Origin: a virus
UHGV virus genome: UHGV-0300374
Strand: one strand, 5' to 3'
Length of the DNA stretch: 64,000 nucleotides
This document shows, one piece after another, positions 4,948-18,255 of the stretch (position 1 is the first letter of the stretch; the number at the start of each line of letters is the position of its first letter). The position numbers were made by a program, and so were the translations under genes. The notes under the pieces are model-generated. The model was not told where the DNA came from. It did no database searches and was given only the letters and a program-made list of their open reading frames with translations.

Positions 4948-5505
4948 GTGATAGATATGGAAAAAGATAACTTAAAAGATGTTGAAGGTAACTATCTAGT
5001 CCTTGACTGGAAGGATGTTCGGGAAGCACTCTCCGAAGAAAATCTTGACTGGTTCGAACAAATTATCTTTGCAGTACGGCATAACCGAGAAGTTGAAAAT
5101 GGTAAAGAGCCATTAGAAGGAATCTTTGTAGAGAGGTCTTATCCGTTCTATGAAGACACTTTGCAGAAAGTTAAGATGTACTTTAAACAGAAGAACCGTA
5201 AAGTGGTCACTATGGTATCTCTTGGTGGACAGAGTATGTCTGTGATGGAAGATATCAACCCTAAGAGACCGAGTAAAGGCGTTTGTATAAAAATCACAGG
5301 ACATGAAGAGTATATCTCAGTTGATGACTTTAGTGCATTCTGTAATGGCTCTTGTGTCTTTAATGGTTTTCACTATGATATCCGAGTGTACCCAATCAAG
5401 GGAGATGATATCATGATGCAGGTATTTGATAACAACAATGGCTTTACTCATTTTTATCAGACAACCAAGTCATCACTAAAAACAGTTCTGGAAACACTGA
5501 TTTAA
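4948..5505 (+). CDS. hypothetical protein
   Basis: 185-aa ORF, last gene of the plus-strand early block. Confidence 0.45.
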   Translation: MIDMEKDNLKDVEGNYLVLDWKDVREALSEENLDWFEQIIFAVRHNREVENGKEPLEGIFVERSYPFYEDTLQKVKMYFKQKNRKVVTMVSLGGQSMSVMEDINPKRPSKGVCIKITGHEEYISVDDFSAFCNGSCVFNGFHYDIRVYPIKGDDIMMQVFDNNNGFTHFYQTTKSSLKTVLETLI

Positions 5506-5514
5506 AATATCTTA

Positions 5515-5542
5515 AGAGCCTCCTTAATTGGGGGCTTTTTAT
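5515..5542 (+). terminator. probable rho-independent terminator
   Basis: Imperfect hairpin AGAGCCTCC-TTAATT-GGGGGCT followed by TTTTTATT. Confidence 0.4.
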
Positions 5543-5544
5543 TG

Positions 5545-7130
5545 AGTAAAATTTACGAAATTTATATTTTTATAAAATTTTATCGGTTGTCCCAACCTCT
5601 GGGTCACCATCATATGTGAACAAAATATCTACCCTTCTTAACAACCTTCTTAATCTTACTCTCTATATAGTTATATAGTACTATATAGTATCTTAGTAAC
5701 TATCTAGTGGTCTTAATAGCCCTCTGTATAGCCCTTCTAAATAGCCATCTAAACACTCTTCTAACAAGCCTTCTAAACAACCTATACAATCATCTTAACC
5801 ATCTCTCTACACACTCTTAGAAGCTCCTATACACCTCTTAATCTCTATGTAAGCTATGATACTCTCTATAGGTGTTCACTAGGTATTACTAAGCCTCTAT
5901 ATAGACTGTTTTAGCCAACTTAACAGGAATATCTTTACAGACCTTATCTCACAAGGTCTAACACGGTACTAACAAGGTATCTTATAAGCCTGTTTCTACC
6001 TGTATTTTAGAAAGACTGTATAGGTAATTATTCAGAATTTTAAAATTTTTATAAAATAGGACTATCAAGTCATTTTTTAGGGTCTTTGAAGGAACTGAAA
6101 AATATCTGATTAGGATGTATATCTGCTTGGTAGCCCTTAACAGCTCCCTTACAAGTACTTTGCAAAATTTTAAAATATCCTTAACAATCTCTTAACAGTT
6201 CTCACATCTTCTTAACAACTCTTCAAAGGTCTTAACAGATTCTTAACAAGTCTAACAAGGTTGTAACAGTTTTCTAACAAGACTTAATAGGGCTTTACAG
6301 AATCTTAACAGATGACTAACAAGAGCTAACAAGTTAATTTTAAAGAGTTATTTTGTTAAGATAATTAACAAGTTTCTAACAAGTGTTTAATCTTTTTAAC
6401 AAGCTATTAACATGGTCACTATCTCTTTCTTATCGTTCCCTTTCCCTTCTTAGTGATTCCTTAAACATACCTCTTAAAAGCTCTCTATAGCTCTCTATAG
6501 CTCTTTATAAGCCCCTTTAAGCCTCTTCCTAGTATTTACCCCCCAACTGTACAGATAGCTCTTTATAGGTCTTTACAGGAGCTTTTAAGGCTATGTCAAA
6601 GACTCTTACAAGGCTTTTACGTGGTCTTAACAGAGATTTAACAAGGGGCTAACAAGTTGCTAACAAGTGCCTTAAAAGCATAACTATGTAGGGTTTGTTA
6701 AGAAATTGTTAAGAAAATGTTAAGGGGGCTAGCATTTACGTAACTTTATAGCCTCTTTTACGTAACTTTGAAGTAACTTTATAGCCCCTATAACATGTTT
6801 TTTAGTGACTAGCAAGGGGGTTGTTTAACCATTCACAAGATACTAACCAGCCTATAAGCTTACACCCTTATAAGATTCTTTTAAGCCTCTATAAAGCCCT
6901 GTAAAGAGCTTTTTAAGATAGGTTAATGCAATCCCTTAAGTTAGGTTGATAAGGCTGTTATAGAGCTTTATAGAGCGTTTAAATGGGCCATCCCCTTTCT
7001 GGGGTTATTGGCTTTTATTTAAGTTGATTTGATAAAAGGTTATAGAGTAGACTATAGAGTTATTGCTTTTAAGGTCTGATAAGATTCTGGAAAGGAAAGG
7101 GAAAGGGATTGTATAAGGATTCGATAGACG
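5545..7130. repeat. ORF-free block of short degenerate direct repeats (YTAACAAG, CTNTATAG, CTTTTAAG units) at roughly 10-11 bp spacing
   Basis: No ORF of 60 aa or more on either strand across 1.6 kb; dense recurrence of cttaacaag / ctaacaag / ctctatag / ctttatag words. Confidence 0.6.
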
Positions 7131-7156
7131 TAAAAAAGCCCCTATTTAAAGGGGCT
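7131..7156 (-). terminator. rho-independent terminator ending the minus-strand small-gene array
   Basis: Minus-strand AGCCCCTTTAAATAGGGGCT hairpin followed by TTTTTTAC. Confidence 0.5.
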
Positions 7157-7194
7157 GTTCAGGTATCTGGGGCTATTTAGCCCCGCTGCGTCGA

Positions 7195-7443
7195 TTAGTT
7201 ATAATCTTGTTTGTTGTAGTACAGGGAGACGATTTTTTCTCCCCAATAGTGATAAGTATAACCATCCTTGAGAACTTCTTGTTTTGTTTCCTCCCAGAAC
7301 TCATCCGAAGGATTATAATCTTTGATGGTCTGACTGATAAGACCTTTCACCATTTCAAAGGCGTTATCAGTGCCTGCAATGTCAAATTTAACATCCAGAG
7401 AGGAAAAACCGAACTCGTTAACAGTAGCGCGGATAGTTGCCAT
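7195..7443 (-). CDS. hypothetical protein
   Basis: 82-aa ORF preceded by a repeat cassette with RBS. Confidence 0.4.
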   Translation of the reverse strand: MATIRATVNEFGFSSLDVKFDIAGTDNAFEMVKGLISQTIKDYNPSDEFWEETKQEVLKDGYTYHYWGEKIVSLYYNKQDYN

Positions 7444-7509
7444 TTTTGAATCTCCTAGTTTAAGGGTTTTATTTAATGGGGAGGTTATCGCCTCCCGTTG
7501 ATTAGTAAT

Positions 7510-7773
7510 TTACTGCATATTGGCGTATGTTGCAAGCCTTTTTTCGTTGTATTTTGTAAGAATCTCACAAGATAAAACATCATATTTTGTAACAGCTTTG
7601 CCTTTGTCGAGGTCAAAGAATCCAAATGATTTACCATCTTTGAATCCGACAACTTCGTAAGATTCTTTAATGATTTCACCATTGAACAAATCGCTTTCGA
7701 TACGGTGGAATAATGCTACATCCTCTTTGTCGGTTGCAATTTGTAAAAGAGTGGTCAGTTCGACGTGTTCCAT
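7510..7773 (-). CDS. hypothetical protein
   Basis: 87-aa ORF with upstream cassette. Confidence 0.4.
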   Translation of the reverse strand: MEHVELTTLLQIATDKEDVALFHRIESDLFNGEIIKESYEVVGFKDGKSFGFFDLDKGKAVTKYDVLSCEILTKYNEKRLATYANMQ

Positions 7774-7834
7774 TTTGAATCTCCAGTTTAGGATTTTATT
7801 TAGTGGGGGAGGTCATCCCCCGTTGATTGACAAT

Positions 7835-8365
7835 TTACAGACTTTTGATTGTCTCGTCAATATCTTTTTCAATTTCTCTTAAAGTTTTTTCTAAGTTCTT
7901 GATATTCAGCATTAACCCCTCTCCCAGTGTCTTAGCGTAACCATTTGGGCGATGGTCATAAAGCTCGATTTCTTCCACTTCGTAAAGGCTGACATTGAAG
8001 CCCCCTACCCCGTAGGCTGTGGATGAAGTGCCTTCCGGTGCTTTGTAGTACTTATTGAGATTCTTTAAAGAGCGCTCGTAAGCCATACGATAACCGTTTA
8101 ACACTGTTTTAGTGCAATCTCGTACACCTTCACACTGTACCGCATACTTTTCTAAGAACAGCGGGAGGAGTTCCGCTACCGCTTGCATGAAGTTCGATAC
8201 TACAACGGTAGAAACATTACGACGATGAACGTAATAAGCCCCGTTTTCTGATTTAGTGATAGTTGCGAAATGTTCACCATTGCAACGGAATTCATAGGTA
8301 TCTTTTACAGGCTTTGACATGACATGAATTGAACGGATGTAGTTGATAGCTTTGAACTTGTTCAT
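7835..8365 (-). CDS. hypothetical protein
   Basis: 176-aa ORF with upstream cassette. Confidence 0.45.
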   Translation of the reverse strand: MNKFKAINYIRSIHVMSKPVKDTYEFRCNGEHFATITKSENGAYYVHRRNVSTVVVSNFMQAVAELLPLFLEKYAVQCEGVRDCTKTVLNGYRMAYERSLKNLNKYYKAPEGTSSTAYGVGGFNVSLYEVEEIELYDHRPNGYAKTLGEGLMLNIKNLEKTLREIEKDIDETIKSL

Positions 8366-8589
8366 TTTAGAATCTCCTAGTTTAAGGGCTTTGTTTAGTG
8401 GGGAAGTTCATTCCCTCCCCGTTGATTAGTAATTTACTTGTTTTGATATCTGATTGCAAGCAATTTTTTAAGCTTATCTATAAAGAAATCTTTTAAGTGA
8501 ATCCCTTTTAGATAAACCCCCTCGAACAAAGTTACCAATGTCAATGGGTATTGTCAACACTTTTTTAAAAGTTTTTTATAAGTTATTGA

Positions 8590-8931
8590 TTAACTGATGA
8601 ATATTTTTTCAGGCTTTACATAGCTGATACGCTGACTTTTTAGCAGGTCATCCCAGATTAACGCGGCGATATGGGCATAACCGGATTCACGTAAAAGTTT
8701 CATTGTTTTACTTCTCGTTTCAAAACGGCTTGCATAGTACTCACTATTCAGTGTCGTTTTATTCCCTTCGTTGTCTACATGGATAATCTGCATCACTTGA
8801 AAGGGGCTTGTGTCCTCGCCTTTATTCCACTGTTCAAAGTATTTTAGGCACTGCATAGGTGACATCTTATCACTGACCTGAGTTGACCAAGATGCGCCAG
8901 CTTTATCGGTAATTACGGTTACATAAGCCAT
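8590..8931 (-). CDS. hypothetical protein
   Basis: 113-aa ORF with upstream cassette. Confidence 0.45.
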   Translation of the reverse strand: MAYVTVITDKAGASWSTQVSDKMSPMQCLKYFEQWNKGEDTSPFQVMQIIHVDNEGNKTTLNSEYYASRFETRSKTMKLLRESGYAHIAALIWDDLLKSQRISYVKPEKIFIS

Positions 8932-9021
8932 TTTTAGATTCTCCAGTTTAGGACTTTATTTAGTGGGGAAGGTCATTCCCTCCCCGTTGATTGACAATTT
9001 ACAGATTTTTATCAGGCTTGT

Positions 9022-9255
9022 CTAGTCTTTTTCAATGATAATTTCATACTGACCATCAACACTATCGAAATAGATTCCGTCGTCATCTTCTGTCTTAAAG
9101 TAACACTGAATATCATCACTTGCGGGGTAGTCTTGCCTTGCTATCTGGCAAACTTGAATAGCATTTTCTTTACTTCCTGTAAACTCTTCAAGCCCTTTAA
9201 AATCGCATGAATGACCGTTACAAATAGAAAGGATGAGGTAAACGGTTGTAAGCAT
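9022..9255 (-). CDS. hypothetical small protein with hydrophobic N-terminus
   Basis: 77-aa ORF; N-terminus MLTTVYLILSICNG; preceded by a different stem-loop (agccccttacaggggct) and RBS GGGAGG. Confidence 0.35.
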   Translation of the reverse strand: MLTTVYLILSICNGHSCDFKGLEEFTGSKENAIQVCQIARQDYPASDDIQCYFKTEDDDGIYFDSVDGQYEIIIEKD

Positions 9256-9321
9256 GATTTAAGCCTCCCAAAAGCCCCTGTAAGGGGCTAAATAGTGTTT
9301 ATAAGGTGATTGCATAGGTTT

Positions 9322-9864
9322 TTAGAAAAAGCTCTTTAAATCCTCTTCTGTGATGTTTCCTGTTAGTGTATCCATGATGTCACAAAAAACCTGAATACTG
9401 TCCGACTGTTGAACACTTTTAGCAAGAAGCTCCAGAGACTCATCAAGATAATTTAAATTTGGGTTATCCAATGAAGGAAGACAAAAAGGTGAAAACATGG
9501 CATTAAATTCAGTGATGTAAACCTTTTTAATCCAGCTTATATCAAAATACTCTGTAAAACTTGCCACGCTCGACATATTATCACAAGAATAATCATCATT
9601 CAACTCATCCTCTGGAATATCAAGTTCCAAGATAACAATATTTTGAGTTTTCATCTGAAAAGCTGCCGTTATAGTGGCATTGCCAAGAGCTTGCTGGATA
9701 CCTTCAGAGATTATTTCTTCCTCATCGTCGCCATAGATTTTATTTTCTGGATACACGTAAAAATTGCCGTCCATATCCGAACAATTCCATGCGCCTGATG
9801 GTTTATCACCGTTATTAATCAGGTTGAGGAAATTTTCTTGAGTAGTACCGTGAAAACATTTCAT
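9322..9864 (-). CDS. hypothetical acidic protein; possible minimal ADP-ribosyltransferase-like fold (weak)
   Basis: 180-aa ORF; N-terminal CFHGTTQENFLNLINNG then GNFYVYPENKIYGDDEEE, reminiscent of H-G-[ST] and aromatic motifs of H-Y-[ED] ADP-ribosyltransferases; unverified. Confidence 0.45.
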   Translation of the reverse strand: MKCFHGTTQENFLNLINNGDKPSGAWNCSDMDGNFYVYPENKIYGDDEEEIISEGIQQALGNATITAAFQMKTQNIVILELDIPEDELNDDYSCDNMSSVASFTEYFDISWIKKVYITEFNAMFSPFCLPSLDNPNLNYLDESLELLAKSVQQSDSIQVFCDIMDTLTGNITEEDLKSFF

Positions 9865-9949
9865 TTTTGAATCTCCAGTTTAGGATTTAGTGGTAAAGCT
9901 CTTTATCTGGGGCTTAAGATATCAACTTTTAAGCCCCTTGTAAAGTACT

Positions 9950-10153
9950 TTATTTGTTATTTTTGACAACTTTTAAAACTGCAAGATAACCTAAGCAATA
10001 AGAATCCCCGAAGAGAGTTCTACCCATGAAAGAGTCCTCTTTGATATCCTTTGCAGTGACAGTTTTTTCTACGCCGTGGGAAAGGACTACATCACCGACT
10101 TTAATATCTTTGATGTGTGCAGTCTCGATAGATACGCCGTTAATAATAGCCAT
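9950..10153 (-). CDS. hypothetical protein (starts MAII)
   Basis: 67-aa ORF with upstream cassette. Confidence 0.4.
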   Translation of the reverse strand: MAIINGVSIETAHIKDIKVGDVVLSHGVEKTVTAKDIKEDSFMGRTLFGDSYCLGYLAVLKVVKNNK

Positions 10154-10238
10154 TTTAGAATCTCCAGTTTAGGATTTAGTGGTAAAGCTCTTTATCTGGG
10201 GCTTAAGATATCAACTTTTAAGCCCCTTGTAAAGTACT

Positions 10239-10487
10239 TTATTGCGTCTTCTTCGTAAATATTAGTTTTACAGCGATTGTTGGAAGCTCTTCGATATTTG
10301 TAAATAGTGTTACTTTTTGAGTAGTAACCTTGTAACCGTTTTTTGCAGCGTAACCCGTAAAGCGGTTAACCGTGTAGCTATATGTTTTTGGTGTATTGTC
10401 TGGCATATGGTACAGGAAAGGTTTGCCTAAATTTTCTGGTTGCGTCAACAGTCGGCAAGTATCAGGGATATTTAAAAAATTCATCAT
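10239..10487 (-). CDS. hypothetical protein
   Basis: 82-aa ORF with upstream cassette. Confidence 0.4.
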   Translation of the reverse strand: MMNFLNIPDTCRLLTQPENLGKPFLYHMPDNTPKTYSYTVNRFTGYAAKNGYKVTTQKVTLFTNIEELPTIAVKLIFTKKTQ

Positions 10488-10550
10488 TTTAGAATCTCCA
10501 GTTTAGGACTTTATTTAGTGGGGAAGGTCATTCCCTCCCCGTTGATGTGT

Positions 10551-10579
10551 AATTTAATCTATCTAAAAATCAGTGTCAA
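10551..10579 (-). promoter_or_regulatory. sigma70-like promoter within cassette (minus strand TTGACA-N17-TAAATT)
   Basis: -35 TTGACA (10574-10579) and -10 TAAATT (10551-10556), 17-nt spacer, upstream of stem-loop and RBS for gene 10239-10487. Confidence 0.5.
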
Positions 10580-10588
10580 CAAAATTTT

Positions 10589-10993
10589 TTAAAGTTCTGC
10601 ATAAATTGCATCACAGATATTACGGAAGTCATGATTAGTCAAATTACGCTGCAACCAAGTGGCGAAAAAGTCAGCGATTGCAAAGTTAGCATCATACTCG
10701 ACAGATAGCCACACTTTAACAGCAAATCGGAACATTTTCAAATCTAACTCTTTATTCATTACCTTAGATTTGCCTAACATGTCGGACATTTCATATTGCG
10801 CACCGTCTAGCGTGATACCTGCTGCAACGTCAGCCAATGAATTTTTTACGTTTTCAACGTCTAAAATAACGCTTTGAATCTTCCCGATAATGTTGTGCAA
10901 TGTCTCATCAGGTGCTGATGACGTAATAACATTAATCCGGTTGACGGTCAAACGTGCTTTTAAAATTGATAATTCACGGTTATTAATAGCCAT
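10589..10993 (-). CDS. hypothetical protein (starts MAIN)
   Basis: 134-aa ORF with upstream cassette. Confidence 0.45.
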   Translation of the reverse strand: MAINNRELSILKARLTVNRINVITSSAPDETLHNIIGKIQSVILDVENVKNSLADVAAGITLDGAQYEMSDMLGKSKVMNKELDLKMFRFAVKVWLSVEYDANFAIADFFATWLQRNLTNHDFRNICDAIYAEL

Positions 10994-11078
10994 TTTAGAA
11001 TCTCCAATTTAGGATTTAGTGGTAAAGTTCTTTATCTGGGGCTTACTTTATCGAACTATAAGCCCCTTGTAAAGTACT

Positions 11079-11351
11079 TTATACTAAATGCAGCTTTTTA
11101 CCTTTTACTATAATGTAACTCGATGCGCTATTGCTTTGCACATCCTGATAAATTCTGCGCAAACGTCCTTCGTAGTATACTTTCCAACTGGTTGGAATCT
11201 TTTTCCCGTATCCTGTAGCAGTTTTTTGGAGTCCTGCAACTTGCCAATCCAAAATGTGCTGTTCAGCTTGTAAATCCTCGAAGTGCATTACACCGTTCAC
11301 ATAGTGGCGTAGGGTTACGTTTAAGGTGCGACCGTTGTTAGTAGTGTACAT
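11079..11351 (-). CDS. hypothetical protein
   Basis: Track ORF 11079-11393 trimmed to ATG at 11351, preceded by AGGAG RBS. Confidence 0.4.
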   Translation of the reverse strand: MYTTNNGRTLNVTLRHYVNGVMHFEDLQAEQHILDWQVAGLQKTATGYGKKIPTSWKVYYEGRLRRIYQDVQSNSASSYIIVKGKKLHLV

Positions 11352-11376
11352 TTTAAAAGCTCCTAGTTTAAGGGTT

Positions 11377-11535
11377 TTATTTTGACAGTTCACTAATTAA
11401 GACATCAAAGATTATATCATTATCTGCTACAGTTGCAACACCAGTGATATAATCAATTTCTAGGATAACAACAACTTTCGTACATAAACCGTCATCTATA
11501 TCATTCCAGACAACTTTATCACCTGCACAAAACAT
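11377..11535 (-). CDS. hypothetical small protein (52 aa), missed by the 60-aa ORF cut-off
   Basis: ATG immediately after a full variant-a cassette (RBS GGAGA); translation MFCAGDKVVWNDIDDGLCTKVVVILEIDYITGVATVADNDIIFDVLISELSK. Confidence 0.3.
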   Translation of the reverse strand: MFCAGDKVVWNDIDDGLCTKVVVILEIDYITGVATVADNDIIFDVLISELSK

Positions 11536-11599
11536 TTTCAGAATCTCCAGTTTAGGACTTTATTTAGTGGGGAAGGTCATTCCCTCCCCGTTGATGTGT

Positions 11600-11628
11600 A
11601 ATTTAACCTATCTAAAAACCAGTGTCAA
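11600..11628 (-). promoter_or_regulatory. sigma70-like promoter within cassette (minus strand TTGACA-N17-TAAATT)
   Basis: Same architecture as 10551-10579; -35 overlaps the stop codon of the upstream gene. Confidence 0.5.
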
Positions 11629-11957
11629 CAGTTTTGTTTTCGTTTGCTCAATTCTTGAACAATTACAGCATGATAGTCTTTTAAATCACTGATATTTAAA
11701 GCATTTATCAGAGAGTTATAATCATCGACTAACTGAAAATTATCTTTGAAGATGTCACTTATCTGATAGGTTTTCGCTTTATATCTGAAGCTCATCTCTA
11801 GCCGCTTTATTTGCTCATCACTGAGGCGCCCTAGAAAGCTTTCTACAAGGTTATTACTAACCTGCTGTGTGATTGACTTATTTGCTAGATTATAGGCTTT
11901 ATATGCCTTATATAGCGCGAAAATGGCAATGATTGCAGTGATACCAGTCATTAACAT
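11625..11957 (-). CDS. hypothetical membrane protein (N-terminal TM helix)
   Basis: 110-aa ORF; N-terminus MLMTGITAIIAIFALYKAYKAY. Confidence 0.4.
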   Translation of the reverse strand: MLMTGITAIIAIFALYKAYKAYNLANKSITQQVSNNLVESFLGRLSDEQIKRLEMSFRYKAKTYQISDIFKDNFQLVDDYNSLINALNISDLKDYHAVIVQELSKRKQNC

Positions 11958-12247
11958 GGTGTTTCCTCTTTACGTGATACTTTGCCATTTACAGTTATCT
12001 CATAGGATTCTAATAAATCGCTTTTAGACTTTACAGGACTTTTAAAAGTATCATCATAAATATTAACTTGCAATACAGGCTTTTTATATTCCCTACAACT
12101 ATTCCATAAGCAAATCACTACACGACGGCCTTTTATTTTGCCGTGTAACCATTCCATAACATCATGACTATTCCTTGATGTTTCAATGAAATCAATTTTG
12201 TTGAGTAATTTGCTTATACTTTCACGGACTCTATTTGATAATTTCAT
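11951..12247 (-). CDS. hypothetical protein
   Basis: 98-aa ORF with upstream cassette. Confidence 0.4.
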   Translation of the reverse strand: MKLSNRVRESISKLLNKIDFIETSRNSHDVMEWLHGKIKGRRVVICLWNSCREYKKPVLQVNIYDDTFKSPVKSKSDLLESYEITVNGKVSRKEETPC

Positions 12248-12337
12248 TTTGAATCTCCTAGTTTAAGGGTTATTTTGATAAATCTCTTTATCTGGGGCTA
12301 TCATATCAGCTTGTTAGCCCCGTGTAAAGAGGTCTAT

Positions 12338-12850
12338 TTAGTTCTTAAAGATATTCATCACTGAATCTTTTAATGCTTCCAAGCGTTCTAATACTTCAGT
12401 TTCTGCGTCTGAATTGTTCACCTCTTCTTTTAGTCTATCCTCTAAATCATCGCCGTCACTATAGCACCAATCAAAGGCATATCCTAGATAAAAACTCTCT
12501 AAAACCGTGTTGCCATTTGCATCGATAACTTTCGCGGCAAGGTTGTATTCTGAAGCCTCTAAATCTCTTTCTAGTTCTTTCTGTAAGCTGGTGTAAGCCT
12601 CTTTTGATGGGTTTTCCCGGCCTTGTTTTGCATAGTCACTTGAAAGCTGTTTAAGGCTGTAATGCAAAGGGATTGCATATTTAAAATCATTATGCTGACA
12701 GTTAGGATTTTTAACAGTCACACCGCCTTGATGGTCGTTTGTAAACTCCCAATTATCGAGATTATGGCTTGCTTCGTAGCAATTTACCGCTTCGTAGATG
12801 ATGGAAAATTTTTCTTTTACAACTTCAAAGGTAGCGTCTACAGTTTTCAT
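12338..12850 (-). CDS. hypothetical acidic protein
   Basis: 170-aa ORF with upstream cassette. Confidence 0.45.
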   Translation of the reverse strand: MKTVDATFEVVKEKFSIIYEAVNCYEASHNLDNWEFTNDHQGGVTVKNPNCQHNDFKYAIPLHYSLKQLSSDYAKQGRENPSKEAYTSLQKELERDLEASEYNLAAKVIDANGNTVLESFYLGYAFDWCYSDGDDLEDRLKEEVNNSDAETEVLERLEALKDSVMNIFKN

Positions 12851-12935
12851 TTTAGAATCTCCAGTTTAGGATTTAGTGGTAAAGCTCTTTATCTGGGGCT
12901 TAAGATATCAACTTTTAAGCCCCCTGTAAAGTACT

Positions 12936-13229
12936 TTATTTGTTAATTTTCAGCTTTGCATAACTTCTCATTGTACGAATGGGGGATGTTAATGCTACGC
13001 GTCTAATGTATGCCTTTTTCGTGTATACATTTGTCTTCCCGATAGTGTTTACACATGTAAAAAGGTTTATCGGTGAATTTTTTAACTTCAACTGTTTATC
13101 AACCTTCACGCCCCACCTTACAGCAGATTGTTTTCCGTTGTCAACCACTTTCCCGCATAACTTTTTAGCCATGATACGAGCGTCATCACGAGTCTTTGCG
13201 GTAATTACAACGTTTTTGATAATAGCCAT
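12936..13229 (-). CDS. hypothetical basic protein (starts MAII)
   Basis: Track ORF trimmed to the ATG that directly follows the cassette. Confidence 0.4.
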   Translation of the reverse strand: MAIIKNVVITAKTRDDARIMAKKLCGKVVDNGKQSAVRWGVKVDKQLKLKNSPINLFTCVNTIGKTNVYTKKAYIRRVALTSPIRTMRSYAKLKINK

Positions 13230-13315
13230 TTTTAAGTTCTCCAATTTAGGATTTAGTGTTAAAGCTCTTTATCTGGGGCTTACTTTATCGAACTATAAGC
13301 CCCTTGTAAAGTACT

Positions 13316-13699
13316 TTATTTGTTAATTTTGAAGATAGTTACATAACCATCGCTGCCGATGATTTGTGATGCTCCAGCTTTTTCTACTTGATAGCCCATA
13401 TTTTCAAGATGGTAAACAGCATCATCATAACCATATGCGCCGCCCTGATAACGTCTCTTATCACATCTTACTAATACCTTTCCACGTCCTGCCAGTGCAT
13501 TTAGTACGGCTTTTTCACTTGAAAGTGTACCATCTAACATGGTTGCCGTGTAATGGTTGATTCTATTCCCGTTTACATCATACTTAAAATTGAATGCGTG
13601 AACAACGATAATGTTACCTTTAAAATTTTCATCAAGTGACTTCTCCAGTGCGTTGCGAAAGTTGTCTTTGTTGATGAATTTAGGTGCACGATATGCCAT
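13316..13699 (-). CDS. hypothetical protein
   Basis: 127-aa ORF, first gene of the array. Confidence 0.45.
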   Translation of the reverse strand: MAYRAPKFINKDNFRNALEKSLDENFKGNIIVVHAFNFKYDVNGNRINHYTATMLDGTLSSEKAVLNALAGRGKVLVRCDKRRYQGGAYGYDDAVYHLENMGYQVEKAGASQIIGSDGYVTIFKINK

Positions 13700-13762
13700 T
13701 TTTGAATCTCCAGTTTAGGACTTTATTTAGTGGGGAAGGTCATTCCCTCCCCGTTGATGCAA

Positions 13763-13791
13763 ATACTAGATAACCACGTTCAAAGAGTCAA
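13763..13791 (-). promoter_or_regulatory. sigma70-like promoter (minus strand TTGACT-N17-TAGTAT) for the small-gene array
   Basis: -35 at 13786-13791, -10 at 13763-13768, 17-nt spacer, followed by cassette stem-loop and RBS. Confidence 0.45.
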
Positions 13792-13912
13792 GAAAAATTT
13801 TAAAAATATTTTTAGCAAAACTGTAATGAAACGGGCGCACACGACTACCACAAAACAGAACACAAATCAAGAATTATTTTTCAATCCGCTACAAATTTTT
13901 CTCTTGACTTTT

Positions 13913-13943
13913 GGGGAGAGGGGGAGTAAGAGGGGGAGAGGGG
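13913..13943 (+). other. 31-nt polypurine tract with G-quadruplex potential (GGGG AGA GGGGG AGTAAGA GGGGG AGA GGGG)
   Basis: Four G-runs of 4-5 separated by loops of 3, 7 and 3 nt in an AT-rich non-coding region. Confidence 0.5.
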
Positions 13944-13964
13944 TTGGTCTGGCTCTATATAAAA

Positions 13965-14155
13965 ACCTACCTGCACGATTCTAAAATGATTTTTCTTGCC
14001 CGACCTGAGCGGGGTCTGCACGTTTTGAAAATGAAAAAGCCCTTTGGAGATTACCTGCACAATTTGAAAATGAATTTTCTCTTTGGAGTTCAAAATTTTC
14101 TCTACAGATTTCTCTATAGAAATATACCTGCACAATTCTGAAATGAAAAAGCCCT
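13965..14155. repeat. four direct repeats, consensus ACCTGCACAATTYTGAAAATGA
   Basis: Copies near 13968, 14015, 14053 and 14125 in the non-coding region between the macro-domain gene and the small-gene array. Confidence 0.55.
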
Positions 14156-14219
14156 CCTTACCTGAAAAATTTACCAGATAAGAAAGGCTTAACCTATTGT
14201 GAATATTCTACAGAGTTTC

Positions 14220-15005
14220 TTAGTTCTTTGCGTCTAAGAAGGTAACTTCTGGTGAAGAGAAGATTGCCTCGATATCCTCATCAGTTCTTGCATAGATATA
14301 AGCTTCTGCATCACTACCAAATGTTACAGCAATTCTGTGATTGCTCTTTGACAGGTGGGTAACTAGAGCGTTACTTAGAGACATCTTTTCAACCGGAGGG
14401 TTACTTTGATGTATCTTACCTTTTCTTCGTCTGAAGAGGGTAACTGCATTATCCGTGAACACTGCTACACCTGCAAAGTATTCTGGTTCACAGTAGTTCT
14501 TCCAACCTGAGAGTAACTTGTGGTACATCTCTCCTTCATAGACATATAGATAAACATCTACACTCTTCATAACCTGATTGATGATAACTGTGACGGCTTG
14601 AGAGTCTAGTCCACCGATACCTGCACCAATCATAGGTAACCCAACTTTCTTCAACTGATTGACTTCACAGTATCTGTTAAGTTGTTTCAAAGATGACTCT
14701 AAAGCACTGTATCGGGCATCTTTACCAGTCTTAAGCTGAGTGTAAAGGTTAGCTATACGGCCTTGTTCTAAACGTGCTACAGAGAAATTACCCAGTAAAT
14801 TTTCACAGGGTTTGTGACCTATACCACCTGCATAGAGGTAAACTTCTGTATCGGTCTCATATGCTTTTGGGTAAAGTTTAGAAATCTTGTCAGCGATACC
14901 TGCACCCATTAAATTCATACAGTTGCAACCGTGACCAATAATATCAAACTTACCTTTATCAAATGCTGAGAAGATATCCCCATTGATGATTTTTACAATA
15001 CCCAT
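14220..15005 (-). CDS. macro-domain protein (TARG1/OARD1/DarG-like, ADP-ribose binding or hydrolase) with uncharacterised C-terminal domain of about 110 aa
   Basis: IINGDIF...DIIGHGCNCMNLMGAGIADKI and VGLPMIGAGIGGLD resemble the two glycine-rich ADP-ribose-binding loops of TARG1-type macrodomains. Confidence 0.6.
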   Translation of the reverse strand: MGIVKIINGDIFSAFDKGKFDIIGHGCNCMNLMGAGIADKISKLYPKAYETDTEVYLYAGGIGHKPCENLLGNFSVARLEQGRIANLYTQLKTGKDARYSALESSLKQLNRYCEVNQLKKVGLPMIGAGIGGLDSQAVTVIINQVMKSVDVYLYVYEGEMYHKLLSGWKNYCEPEYFAGVAVFTDNAVTLFRRRKGKIHQSNPPVEKMSLSNALVTHLSKSNHRIAVTFGSDAEAYIYARTDEDIEAIFSSPEVTFLDAKN

Positions 15006-17033: not shown

Positions 17034-17729
17034 TCAATGTTTAACTAACATGGTTTTGATGTGTGGAAGGATTCTGTTCACCTTCTGCACATTCTTCTCT
17101 GTGTCTTCTATAAAACATACTATATTAAAGTAAGGCAGAATGCAAGACTGAATCATCCTCACTTTCAAACTTTCTGCACTTATAGAGTTAGTCCCAAAAC
17201 CACGCATAAAAAGCATGTAGTCATGCTCTGTGTTATGCCTTAAAAACATCTCAGTAGGTATTCTCTGAGATTCACCTCTCGCTGTCAAGAGTCCAACAGC
17301 AGCATGATTAGCAATTGCATCAATGATATTGAAAACATACGTTGGTTTTGCTCTTACAGAGTCAAGAAGATTAGTGTACTGCGAGAATGAACCGTCAGTC
17401 AATTCCGTTGAACAATCTTCGTGATTAAAATTTGTAAGAACACCATCAATATCTGCTAAGATGAGATTCCCTTTTTCTACAAGGTCTTTATTGACTATGA
17501 CTAAGCTATCACGACTTACACCTATAGTTTGTCCAGTCTCTTTATCTACAACATTCACAATTGGCTCTGATGTGTGAAACTCTTCTAGTGAACATACAAC
17601 TTCTCTTGCAGTGTCTTCAAAATCCCTACACTGTTCTGGAGTCCATACACAGGAATCAAGACCTAACTCATAAGGATGTAAGTCATAAGCGTGACACAGT
17701 ACTTCATCAGACTTTTTTAATTTTTTCAT
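17034..17729 (-). CDS. HAD-superfamily hydrolase, possibly NT5C-like 5'(3')-deoxyribonucleotidase, with N-terminal extension
   Basis: LILADIDGVLTNF (HAD motif I, DxDGV), GLLTARGES (motif II), CFIEDTEKN (motif IV-like). Confidence 0.5.
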   Translation of the reverse strand: MKKLKKSDEVLCHAYDLHPYELGLDSCVWTPEQCRDFEDTAREVVCSLEEFHTSEPIVNVVDKETGQTIGVSRDSLVIVNKDLVEKGNLILADIDGVLTNFNHEDCSTELTDGSFSQYTNLLDSVRAKPTYVFNIIDAIANHAAVGLLTARGESQRIPTEMFLRHNTEHDYMLFMRGFGTNSISAESLKVRMIQSCILPYFNIVCFIEDTEKNVQKVNRILPHIKTMLVKH

Positions 17730-18255
17730 GGTTTACCTTAGAAATGTTTGTTGCAAATTCACATTGAGCAATAACTTTCATGTTGTTATAGACATCTTGA
17801 GAATATTTCTTAGCTTTAGGGATTCTGTACGAATACCCAGCATTATATGATGCTAAAACTTTTTGTAAAGTCTTCTTTGACTTTGGCTGACCATGCACCT
17901 TTGTCCAAAACTCAAGCTCTTTGTGAGTTTCCTTCGCAGCATAATCAAAGTCTCTTAAGAGTTTCTTTTTAGCCACATTAGGGCTAATTTTGTTACGCTT
18001 TACAACAGTCTTCAAGTGATTCTGGAAAATACCATAATCATGTGTCTTTTTATTCTCTACCTTCAGACCTAACTCTGACTCTTGTAAGGCTATAGCAGCT
18101 AGAGTGATACCCCAACCTTTACCCATGTTATTCTCACCATACTGGTAAGCTTTTAACATGTTTACTTTTTGGCTAATTGATAGCTCTGGGCAGTTAACTG
18201 CATAAGATAAGTGTGCTGTAAACATTAAGCACAAACCTAGAATCAATTTCTTCAT
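17707..18255 (-). CDS. secreted lytic transglycosylase (SLT domain) with signal peptide
   Basis: N-terminal MKKLILGLCLMFTAHLSYA; SLT motifs ALQESELG (catalytic E-S), YGIFQN, LASYNAGYSY. Confidence 0.6.
   Translation of the reverse strand: MKKLILGLCLMFTAHLSYAVNCPELSISQKVNMLKAYQYGENNMGKGWGITLAAIALQESELGLKVENKKTHDYGIFQNHLKTVVKRNKISPNVAKKKLLRDFDYAAKETHKELEFWTKVHGQPKSKKTLQKVLASYNAGYSYRIPKAKKYSQDVYNNMKVIAQCEFATNISKVNHEKIKKV

Follow-up and report, generated by a model that had tools for sequence, protein, structure and literature searches.

Promoter and stem-loop cassettes between the accessory genes of a Felix O1-like phage resemble the PeSL elements of T4-type phages

Described cassette systems and the array of UHGV-0300374

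Promoter-early stem-loop (PeSL) cassettes have been defined for T4-like phages only (Arbiol et al., 2010, PMC2839356; Comeau et al., 2014, PMC4122927), and their promoter, terminator and mini-circle activities have been shown experimentally in T4-type phages (PMC2839356; PMC4122927). Here we describe repeated intergenic cassettes of similar make-up in the virus genome UHGV-0300374, of which a stretch of 64,000 nt (the window) was analysed. The cassettes lie among 16 small minus-strand genes (52–180 aa) at 7195–13699, which together with the first cassette form an array at 7195–13791. Megablast searches with the array and both flanks returned ~256–278 phage records, nearly all Felixounavirus, with Escherichia, Salmonella, Shigella and Citrobacter as hosts and identities of 85–96%. 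The source phage is thus a Felixounavirus (Felix O1-like, Ounavirinae) and not a T4-type phage.

Like PeSLs, the cassettes are repeated intergenic units of ~60–100 nt in which a sigma70-like promoter, AT-rich on its upstream side, is combined with a poly-G/poly-C stem-loop and with a Shine-Dalgarno (SD) sequence plus ATG. The stem-loop of PeSLs lies between the -35 and -10 elements or over the -10, as in the type b cassettes described below, or elsewhere. Both kinds of element are concentrated in hyperplastic regions, where they flank ORFans, and in both cases indels between relatives leave a single chimeric element. They differ in that there is one array here, at the genome end, instead of several regions, and in the two fixed architectures of the present cassettes, of which type a would give its own transcript a hairpin at the very 5' end. 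Moreover, the corresponding activities of the present cassettes are predicted from sequence. The match to PeSLs proposed in a first-pass annotation of this DNA therefore holds for the promoter, the GC-rich stem-loop, the SD and ATG, the clustering and the indel crossovers within cassettes, but not for the T4-type setting or for any kinship in sequence. A sensitive BLAST search with both cassettes matched no T4-type phage record. As the phage is Felix O1-like and this search gave no T4-type record, the cassettes are a PeSL analogue and not a homologue. The PeSL-type reading is supported at the level of sequence, and the cassettes are best filed as a PeSL-like system in a second phage lineage.

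The repeats have been recorded before. The Felix O1 genome paper reported a 57-bp repeat, equivalent to type b, and a 39-bp repeat, equivalent to the type-a promoter segment, as direct repeats only (Whichard et al., 2010, PMC3185647). None of the five promoters named there falls in the direct repeats, and no promoter, hairpin or recombination role was proposed for them (PMC3185647). The GenBank record of phage wV8 annotates the cassette repeats as repeat_region DR_1 to DR_9; the wV8 paper does not mention them. The literature searched contained no paper linking PeSLs to Felix O1-like phages, although the phiEa21-4 genome paper (PMC2663227) might discuss these repeats.

Architecture of the two cassette types

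A full cassette precedes 13 of the 16 genes (Table 1), somewhat fewer than the first-pass annotation had envisaged in assigning a cassette to each small gene: there is an overlap between genes 4 and 5, gene 7 follows the leader alone, and gene 12 follows a terminator-like hairpin and an SD. Type a (seven copies, before genes 1, 6, 9, 13, 14, 15 and 16) consists of a -35 element, N17, TAAATT (TAGTAT for gene 1), a 10-nt stretch with CAAC at its end, the GC hairpin (in most copies GGGGAGGGAATGACCTTCCCC), ACTAAATAAAGTCCTAAACTGGAGATTC and the ATG. Type b (six copies, before genes 2, 3, 4, 8, 10 and 11) starts with a stop codon within TAAAGTACTTTACA, followed by the hairpin GGGGCTTA...TAAGCCCC, then AGATAAAGAGCTTTACCACTAAATCCTAAACTGGAGATTC and the ATG, and its promoter, TTTACA-N17-TAnnnT, is embedded in a hairpin of ~19 bp extending from the stop codon of the upstream gene. 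Both hairpins and the conserved leader quoted in the first-pass annotation are present, and its order of hexamers followed by hairpin is correct for type a, but in type b the promoter is inside the hairpin. GGAG lies 7–9 nt ahead of the ATG in all 13 cassettes, and the SD and the start codon form the cassette 3' end.

Profile hidden Markov model (HMM) searches of the 64 kb found seven full type-a copies (E 1e-17 to 1e-22) and six full type-b copies (E 1e-16 to 1e-21), every one of them on the minus strand of 7445–13791 and none in the remaining ~57 kb. Allowing at most three mismatches, the 16-nt leader has nine matches, all in 7777–13719, compared to 0.63 expected; nine was reached in none of 100 shuffles. 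The type-b repeat unit is 120 nt long (9845–9964, 10134–10253, 10974–11093, 12831–12950 and 13211–13330) and extends into coding sequence on both sides, taking in approximately the last five codons upstream and the first four downstream of unrelated genes. Shared termini result among these genes, with genes 1, 2 and 10 ending in K-(I/N)-N-K-stop and genes 2, 8 and 10 beginning with M-A-I-(I/N); the termini appear to have been rewritten by cassette exchange. With a single cassette per type as the query, sensitive BLAST located type a at 1163 places in 253 records and type b at 1379 places in 288 records, Erwinia phages being among the latter; the records with either cassette are Ounavirinae of several genera. 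For comparison among relatives, 72 type-b and 69 type-a cassettes were sampled from the window and 13 relatives, which include Citrobacter phage Mordin (Mooglevirus) and Erwinia phage phiEa21-4 (Kolesnikvirus).

A consensus scan recovered the hexamers named in the first-pass annotation at their sites (TTGACA-N17-TAAATT at 10579–10551 and 11628–11600; TTGACT-N17-TAGTAT at 13791–13763). Run neutrally, it found -35/N17/-10 in five of the seven type-a cassettes and in all six of type b (TTTACA-N17-TATCTT/TAAAGT/TATGAT), there within the hairpin for which no promoter had been named. The two remaining type-a cassettes read TTGCAA-N17-TAAATT, bringing the total to 13 of 13. When the intergenic elements were aligned, a check that the first-pass annotation had suggested, promoter positions and pairing proved to be conserved across three genera. 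CTTTACA is invariant among 43 distinct type-b sequences from these genera, even at the C and A left unpaired by the hairpin. The -10 is always TAnnnT (T34 at least 90% conserved, A35 and the final T39 invariant), the G of an extended -10, two bases before this hexamer, is conserved to at least 90%, and the spacing is 17 throughout. Spacing is likewise 17 in all 69 type-a copies, in which the -35 differs by upstream gene (TTGACA, TTGCAA, TAGACA, TTGACG, TTGACT, TTGATT) and the hairpin always starts 10 nt past the -10, or 11 nt in the first-promoter variant. In the 20 nt that precede the -35, A+T content is 77%, compared to 61% window-wide.

The type-b fold comprises an inner stem of 8–9 bp, a 3x3 internal loop and an outer stem, making up the ~19 pairs. 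In the type-b alignment, 94.9% of cells pair, as opposed to 32–56% when the partners are slid, and compensatory changes from GC to UA occur at columns 19/44 (GGTG...CACC, Erwinia phage) and 6/57. Wobble counts of 59 G.U cells to 5 A.C cells favour folding of the sense strand, i.e., at the RNA level. Type-a stems vary in sequence (GGGGAGGG/CCTTCCCC, GGGAGG/CCTCCC, GGGGGA/TCCCCC, GGGC/GCCC) and all of them fold, with a mean dG of -13 kcal/mol; cassette folds as a whole span -11 to -24 kcal/mol. The strand-asymmetric wobble pairs disfavour a DNA cruciform or replication-origin role for the hairpins. A selfish element resembling miniature inverted-repeat transposable elements or repetitive extragenic palindromes (REP) was ruled out, as the copies are co-oriented and include the SD and ATG belonging to the gene that follows, and terminal inverted repeats are absent from them. 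A scan of 5000–14500 against Rfam 15 gave no real family, the sole match (mir-980, E = 0.26) being at chance level.

These features suggest that each cassette would supply a host sigma70-type promoter, a GC-rich hairpin that folds in the sense-strand RNA, and a standardised, unstructured, A-rich leader with its GGAG. Transcription from type a would start 7–8 nt past the -10, giving an mRNA that begins with (A)AC and carries the stem-loop 2–3 nt from its predicted 5' end, where it may protect the message from 5'-end-dependent decay. In E. coli mRNAs, a hairpin within a few nt of the 5' end protects from such decay, and the ompA 5' untranslated region is a 5'-terminal stem-loop mRNA stabiliser. 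In stabilisers of the ompA type, the hairpin lies a few nt from the 5' end and is followed by an unstructured leader and SD, which is the layout predicted for type a, with the difference that the transcription start of type a is itself a prediction. The type-b transcript would begin at the base just past the inner hairpin. Since this start lies beyond the hairpin, the latter would be present only in read-through RNA of the upstream gene, where it could act as a barrier to 3' exonucleases, an attenuator or a processing signal. The intercistronic RNase III sites in T7 early mRNA, and likewise 3' stabiliser hairpins of the REP type, are comparable to type b, with its ~19-bp stem and internal loops, in being U-tract-free intergenic hairpins just past stop codons in a multi-gene early region. 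Unlike type b, they carry no promoter inside the hairpin.

If the likeness to -35 and -10 elements were incidental, the array could be read as a single long transcript from the promoter at 13791–13763, cut or stabilised at the hairpins, for example through RNase III acting on the type-b stem of ~19 bp or RNase E acting within the A/U-rich leader. The type-b hairpin is indeed long and interrupted, like phage RNase III sites, the G.U excess indicates RNA structure, and the overall density of promoter-like sites is not significant. We nevertheless regard a lack of internal promoters as improbable, because C14, A15 and A35, all unpaired in the hairpin, are invariant and fall exactly on the -35/-10 consensus at a fixed spacing of 17 nt in three genera, and because the differing type-a -35 sequences keep their consensus-like form and spacing. 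In addition, the terminator-like site after gene 11 would starve genes 13–16 if they had no promoters of their own. The palindromes of type b (TAAAGTACTTTA over the stop codon and -35; AAAGAGCTTT past the hairpin) raise the question of whether they are operators by which a phage regulator switches the whole array together, an idea that is compatible with self-contained cassettes. A perfect 12-nt palindrome covers the -35 in most type-b copies, in highly conserved columns; yet the same bases make the outer stem of the hairpin, which accounts for the symmetry, and one outer-stem pair covaries from GC to UA, as RNA pairing predicts. No regulator was identified, and operators appear very unlikely.

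Gene turnover and crossovers within cassettes

Counting a match of at least 80% in a single piece as collinear, the left flank of the array qualifies in 169 of 256 megablast records and the right flank in 174 of 278, whereas the array itself is collinear in none of 256, its best matches covering 67–69% in 9–11 pieces. According to protein-family maps of 14 genomes, array content ranges from 9 genes (Felix O1) to 19 (Mordin). Four of the 16 families in the window are found in all 13 Felixounavirus and Mooglevirus genomes, and almost every genome compared also has, upstream of the array, a block of overlapping genes without cassettes. Gene 9 occurs in only 83 phage records, scattered patchily over several host groups. 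The rapidly exchanged genes expected by the first-pass annotation are borne out in so far as the array is the only non-collinear stretch among ~256 relatives and its content differs between genomes, but order is kept and presence or absence alone varies. In one relative, MET-P1-301, the families of genes 8 and 13 are each represented by two adjacent ORFs, which could reflect gene splitting, frameshifts or partial duplication in tandem.

The cassette type of a gene depends on its neighbour in the given genome. Gene 7, with the leader alone in the window, has a full type-a cassette in genomes that lack gene 6, and gene 10, preceded by type b in the window, has type a where gene 9 is missing. Three-way alignments showed the leftover cassette to be a chimera, with the switch of parent inside shared cassette sequence, in seven of eight indel comparisons. 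These represent four indels (genes 6, 9, 15 and the gene 10–12 block) and, in one comparison out of two (that with wV8), a fifth at gene 3. Two crossover points exist for the loss of gene 15, with the switch at the -10 (TAAATT) in Felix O1 but within the leader in both VpaE1 and NBEco004. In the window, leader sequence that is identical over 24 nt flanks the inserted gene 9. For about half of the cassettes the closest relative is the equivalent position in another genome, while for 20 of 67 type-b copies it is another position of their own genome, which points to homogenisation or recent duplication of type b.

Cassettes in direct orientation share 24–100 nt of near-identical sequence, and homologous recombination between them would delete, insert or swap the intervening gene and leave one functional chimeric cassette. 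The outcome would be the hyperplastic region at the right genome end. Alternatively, the cassettes may be regulatory only, kept alike by selection for strong uniform expression, with genes turning over by unrelated or illegitimate recombination and the junction bias reflecting the lethality of other events. Conserved gene order fits such a view, as do the junction-biased breakpoints that purifying selection predicts and the half of the cassettes that are closest to the equivalent position elsewhere. It is harder to reconcile with leftover cassettes that are clean two-parent chimeras, with two crossover points for one gene loss, with an identical 24-nt leader bounding the gene-9 insertion, with a repeat unit that reaches into the codons of unrelated genes, or with the 20 type-b copies closest to a copy in their own genome. 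We therefore consider a purely regulatory role unlikely.

On balance, the array probably consists of self-contained early-expression cassettes that double as recombination sites. A number of results weigh against this interpretation. With regard to recombination, gene order in the array is conserved among relatives, which makes the variation one of gain and loss, not of free shuffling, and at the gene-3 indel the upstream flank in the VpaE1 comparison fits neither parent, so that no simple two-parent crossover is readable. In favour of recombination at cassettes, internal ends of long homology blocks fall strictly in junctions in 44 of 73 cases, against 22% expected from the junction share of the sequence (p = 3e-12), and 66 of 73 are at most 5 nt from a junction (positions read by hand), but the ends and indel events counted share ancestry and are not phylogenetically independent, and selection for intact genes also predicts indel ends at gene boundaries. 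For both reasons, the chimeras are stronger evidence than the breakpoint counts. With regard to promoters, the region holds 30 promoter-like sites compared to 22 ± 3.7 in shuffles. As this is no clear excess, the promoter case is one of position and conservation and not of count. The cassette hairpins have no U-tract (they are followed by ACTAAATAAAG or AGATAAAGAG) and are hence not canonical intrinsic terminators; the only canonical minus-strand terminators in the scan were 14190–14149 (t13) and 7156–7137 (t23). A weaker terminator-like site is located at 9288–9270, between genes 11 and 12, and its counterpart carries a terminator annotation in the wV8 record. Folding energy does not differ between the sense and antisense strands of the cassettes, and the strand evidence for RNA-level folding is supportive rather than decisive. 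Finally, reverse transcription PCR of Felix O1 had array ORFs 16, 20, 21 and 22 peaking 5 min after infection but placed ORFs 14, 17, 19 and 23 at a 25-min maximum (PMC3185647), thus backing early expression of the array genes only in part, and the literature searched gave no transcriptome, transcription-start or 3'-end mapping for Felix O1-like phages.

Integron cassettes (attC) are a further point of comparison, as they too form a one-directional array of small exchangeable genes, mostly of unknown function, with structured repeats in between. Unlike these, the window has no integrase or attC, the array cassettes have their own promoters, and genes seem to be exchanged through homologous recombination of the ordinary kind, with direct repeats as its substrate. 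A more speculative and rather doubtful extension of the preferred interpretation is that Ounavirinae independently evolved a plug-in accessory-gene platform, a counterpart of the integron without an integrase. The invariant leader of 24–33 nt would then be both translation initiation region and crossover site, and the two types would be purpose-built RNA designs, type a with a 5'-terminal protective hairpin and type b with a promoter buried in a hairpin that blocks read-through. The cargo would include host-modifying effectors, among them a candidate ADP-ribosyltransferase (gene 11), encoded downstream of a phage Macro-domain gene.

Cargo genes, genomic setting and significance

In keeping with the first-pass annotation, which saw no known motif in the encoded proteins, no array protein reaches the Pfam gathering threshold and the PHROGs families are all of unknown function (gene 6 has no PHROG). 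The predicted model of gene 11 (mean predicted local distance difference test score, pLDDT, 60.6) gave a weak match to phage DarT, ranked 4th in BFVD with E = 0.1, and no match was obtained by Foldseek against the PDB or by HMM against PDB sequences. Across the gene 11 family alignment, Y36, Y38 and E80 do not vary and H5 hardly does; enzymes of the ADP-ribosyltransferase (ART) fold have an H-Y-E-type triad. Gene 11 is a weak candidate for this fold.

The array corresponds to Felix O1 ORFs 14–23, bounded by the published terminators t13 and t23 (PMC3185647), and by homology to phage Pr103Blw it is the final gene block ahead of the right direct terminal repeat. The annotated 581-bp direct terminal repeat of Pr103Blw maps to ~6149–6729, and the window therefore covers the genome-end junction. 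Approximately 1.7 kb at ~5450–7190 has no convincing ORF. Within the array, the junction between genes 13 and 14 (8366–8589, 224 nt) is unusually long; it contains an extra promoter-like TTGACAATACCCATTGACATTGGTAACTTT upstream of the type-a cassette, and a small extra ORF is called at this position in SP2 and Sl26.

Directly upstream of the array is a conserved minus-strand gene (14220–15005) with a Macro (ADP-ribose-binding/hydrolase) domain (31.4 bits compared to a Pfam cutoff of 22), which is labelled 'phosphatase' in many records. Its conserved neighbours in relatives include a nicotinamide phosphoribosyltransferase, and this neighbourhood suggests an NAD/ADP-ribose theme near the array. 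Between t13 and the first array promoter (13915–14150, minus strand) there are four copies of a ~22-nt motif, TCATTTYmrAAwyGTGCAGGTA, accompanied by a C/T-rich tract, CCAACCCCTCTCCCCCTCTTACTCCCCCTCTCCCC. The GTGCAG offsets are nearly fixed in Felixounavirus and Mooglevirus, at ~87, 160, 199 and 244 nt past the stop of the Macro-domain gene; a few genomes lack one copy, and phiEa21-4 does not have the motif. An ORF of ~50 aa is called at the same position in some records. The motif set may represent an array of sites bound by a regulator, or a small RNA. A gene near the array is described in the Mordin record as 'similar to T4 RegB', and such a nuclease would suit the uniform GGAG leaders; the idea was dropped, as the window homologue (17707–18255) has no RegB match and only a weak, sub-threshold lysozyme-like SLT match.

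Table 1. Coordinates of the cassettes, genes and bounding terminators of the array, in order of transcription
Position	Strand	Feature	Details	Source
14149–14190	-	Intrinsic terminator upstream of array (t13 of Felix O1)	Ends preceding cassette-free operon	Terminator scan; PMC3185647 Table 2
13700–13791	-	Cassette type a, gene 1; predicted first array promoter	TTGACT 13791–13786, TAGTAT 13768–13763, hairpin 13752–13732, GGAG 13711–13708	
13316–13699	-	Gene 1, 127 aa	phrog_4495 (unknown function)	
13230–13315	-	Cassette type b, gene 2	TTTACA 13310–13305, TAAAGT 13287–13282, inner hairpin 13303–13275	
12936–13229	-	Gene 2, 97 aa	phrog_5089	
12851–12935	-	Cassette type b, gene 3	TTTACA 12930–12925, TATCTT 12907–12902, hairpin 12924–12895	
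12338–12850	-	Gene 3, 170 aa	phrog_4190	
12248–12337	-	Cassette type b, gene 4	Outer stem longer; TTTACA 12328–12323, TATGAT 12305–12300, hairpin 12321–12294	
11951–12247	-	Gene 4, 98 aa	phrog_4401	
11625–11957	-	Gene 5, 110 aa	phrog_4375; no cassette, 7-nt overlap with gene 4	
11536–11628	-	Cassette type a, gene 6	TTGACA 11628–11623, TAAATT 11605–11600, hairpin 11589–11569	
11377–11535	-	Gene 6, 52 aa	No PHROG; in 6/13 Felixounavirus/Mooglevirus genomes, window included	
11352–11376	-	Junction before gene 7	25-nt leader alone, AACCCTTAAACTAGGAGCTTTTAAA	
11079–11351	-	Gene 7, 90 aa	phrog_3436	
10994–11078	-	Cassette type b, gene 8	TTTACA 11073–11068, TAAAGT 11050–11045, hairpin 11066–11038	
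10589–10993	-	Gene 8, 134 aa	phrog_4327	
10488–10579	-	Cassette type a, gene 9	TTGACA 10579–10574, TAAATT 10556–10551, hairpin 10540–10520, predicted +1 ~10543–10542	
10239–10487	-	Gene 9, 82 aa	phrog_9030; rare cargo	
10154–10238	-	Cassette type b, gene 10	TTTACA 10233–10228, TATCTT 10210–10205, hairpin 10226–10198, predicted +1 ~10197	
9950–10153	-	Gene 10, 67 aa	phrog_3623	
9865–9949	-	Cassette type b, gene 11	TTTACA 9944–9939, TATCTT 9921–9916, hairpin 9937–9909	
9322–9864	-	Gene 11, 180 aa	phrog_3303; weak ADP-ribosyltransferase-fold signal	
9256–9321	-	Cassette-free junction	Terminator-like hairpin GCCCCTTACAGGGGC (9288–9274), then TTTT, then gene 12 SD	
9022–9255	-	Gene 12, 77 aa	phrog_4640	
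8932–9024	-	Cassette type a, gene 13	TAGACA 9024–9019 (overlapping gene 12 stop), TAAATT 9001–8996, hairpin 8985–8965	
8590–8931	-	Gene 13, 113 aa	phrog_4318	
8366–8459	-	Cassette type a, gene 14	TTGCAA 8459–8454, TAAATT 8436–8431, hairpin 8420–8400	
7835–8365	-	Gene 14, 176 aa	phrog_4725	
7774–7860	-	Cassette type a, gene 15	TTGACG 7860–7855 (inside gene 14 3' end), TAAATT 7837–7832, hairpin 7821–7805	
7510–7773	-	Gene 15, 87 aa	phrog_7022; missing from 5/12 Felixounavirus/Mooglevirus relatives, chimeric cassette left there	
7444–7535	-	Cassette type a, gene 16	TTGCAA 7535–7530, TAAATT 7512–7507 (overlapping gene 15 stop), hairpin 7496–7478	
7195–7443	-	Gene 16, 82 aa	phrog_4559	
7137–7184	-	Array end	Short b-like hairpin GGGGCTAAATAGCCCC (7184–7169), then canonical intrinsic terminator 7156–7137 (t23 of Felix O1)	Terminator scan; PMC3185647 Table 2

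The Felix O1-like group is much used in Salmonella and E. coli typing, biocontrol and therapy. The interpretation favoured here would explain repeats that were left uninterpreted in earlier genome papers, and it predicts exact transcription starts. The 16 genes of the array, which are probably early and dispensable and are mostly variable among relatives, are candidates for host-takeover or anti-defence screens, and the cassettes could serve phage engineering as compact portable expression units. With ~250–290 sequenced relatives that carry both cassette types, the Ounavirinae offer a well-sampled system for rates of accessory-gene gain and loss and for crossover sites. More broadly, these cassettes would extend the PeSL idea beyond the T4-type phages, as regulatory cassettes that may also drive accessory-gene turnover.

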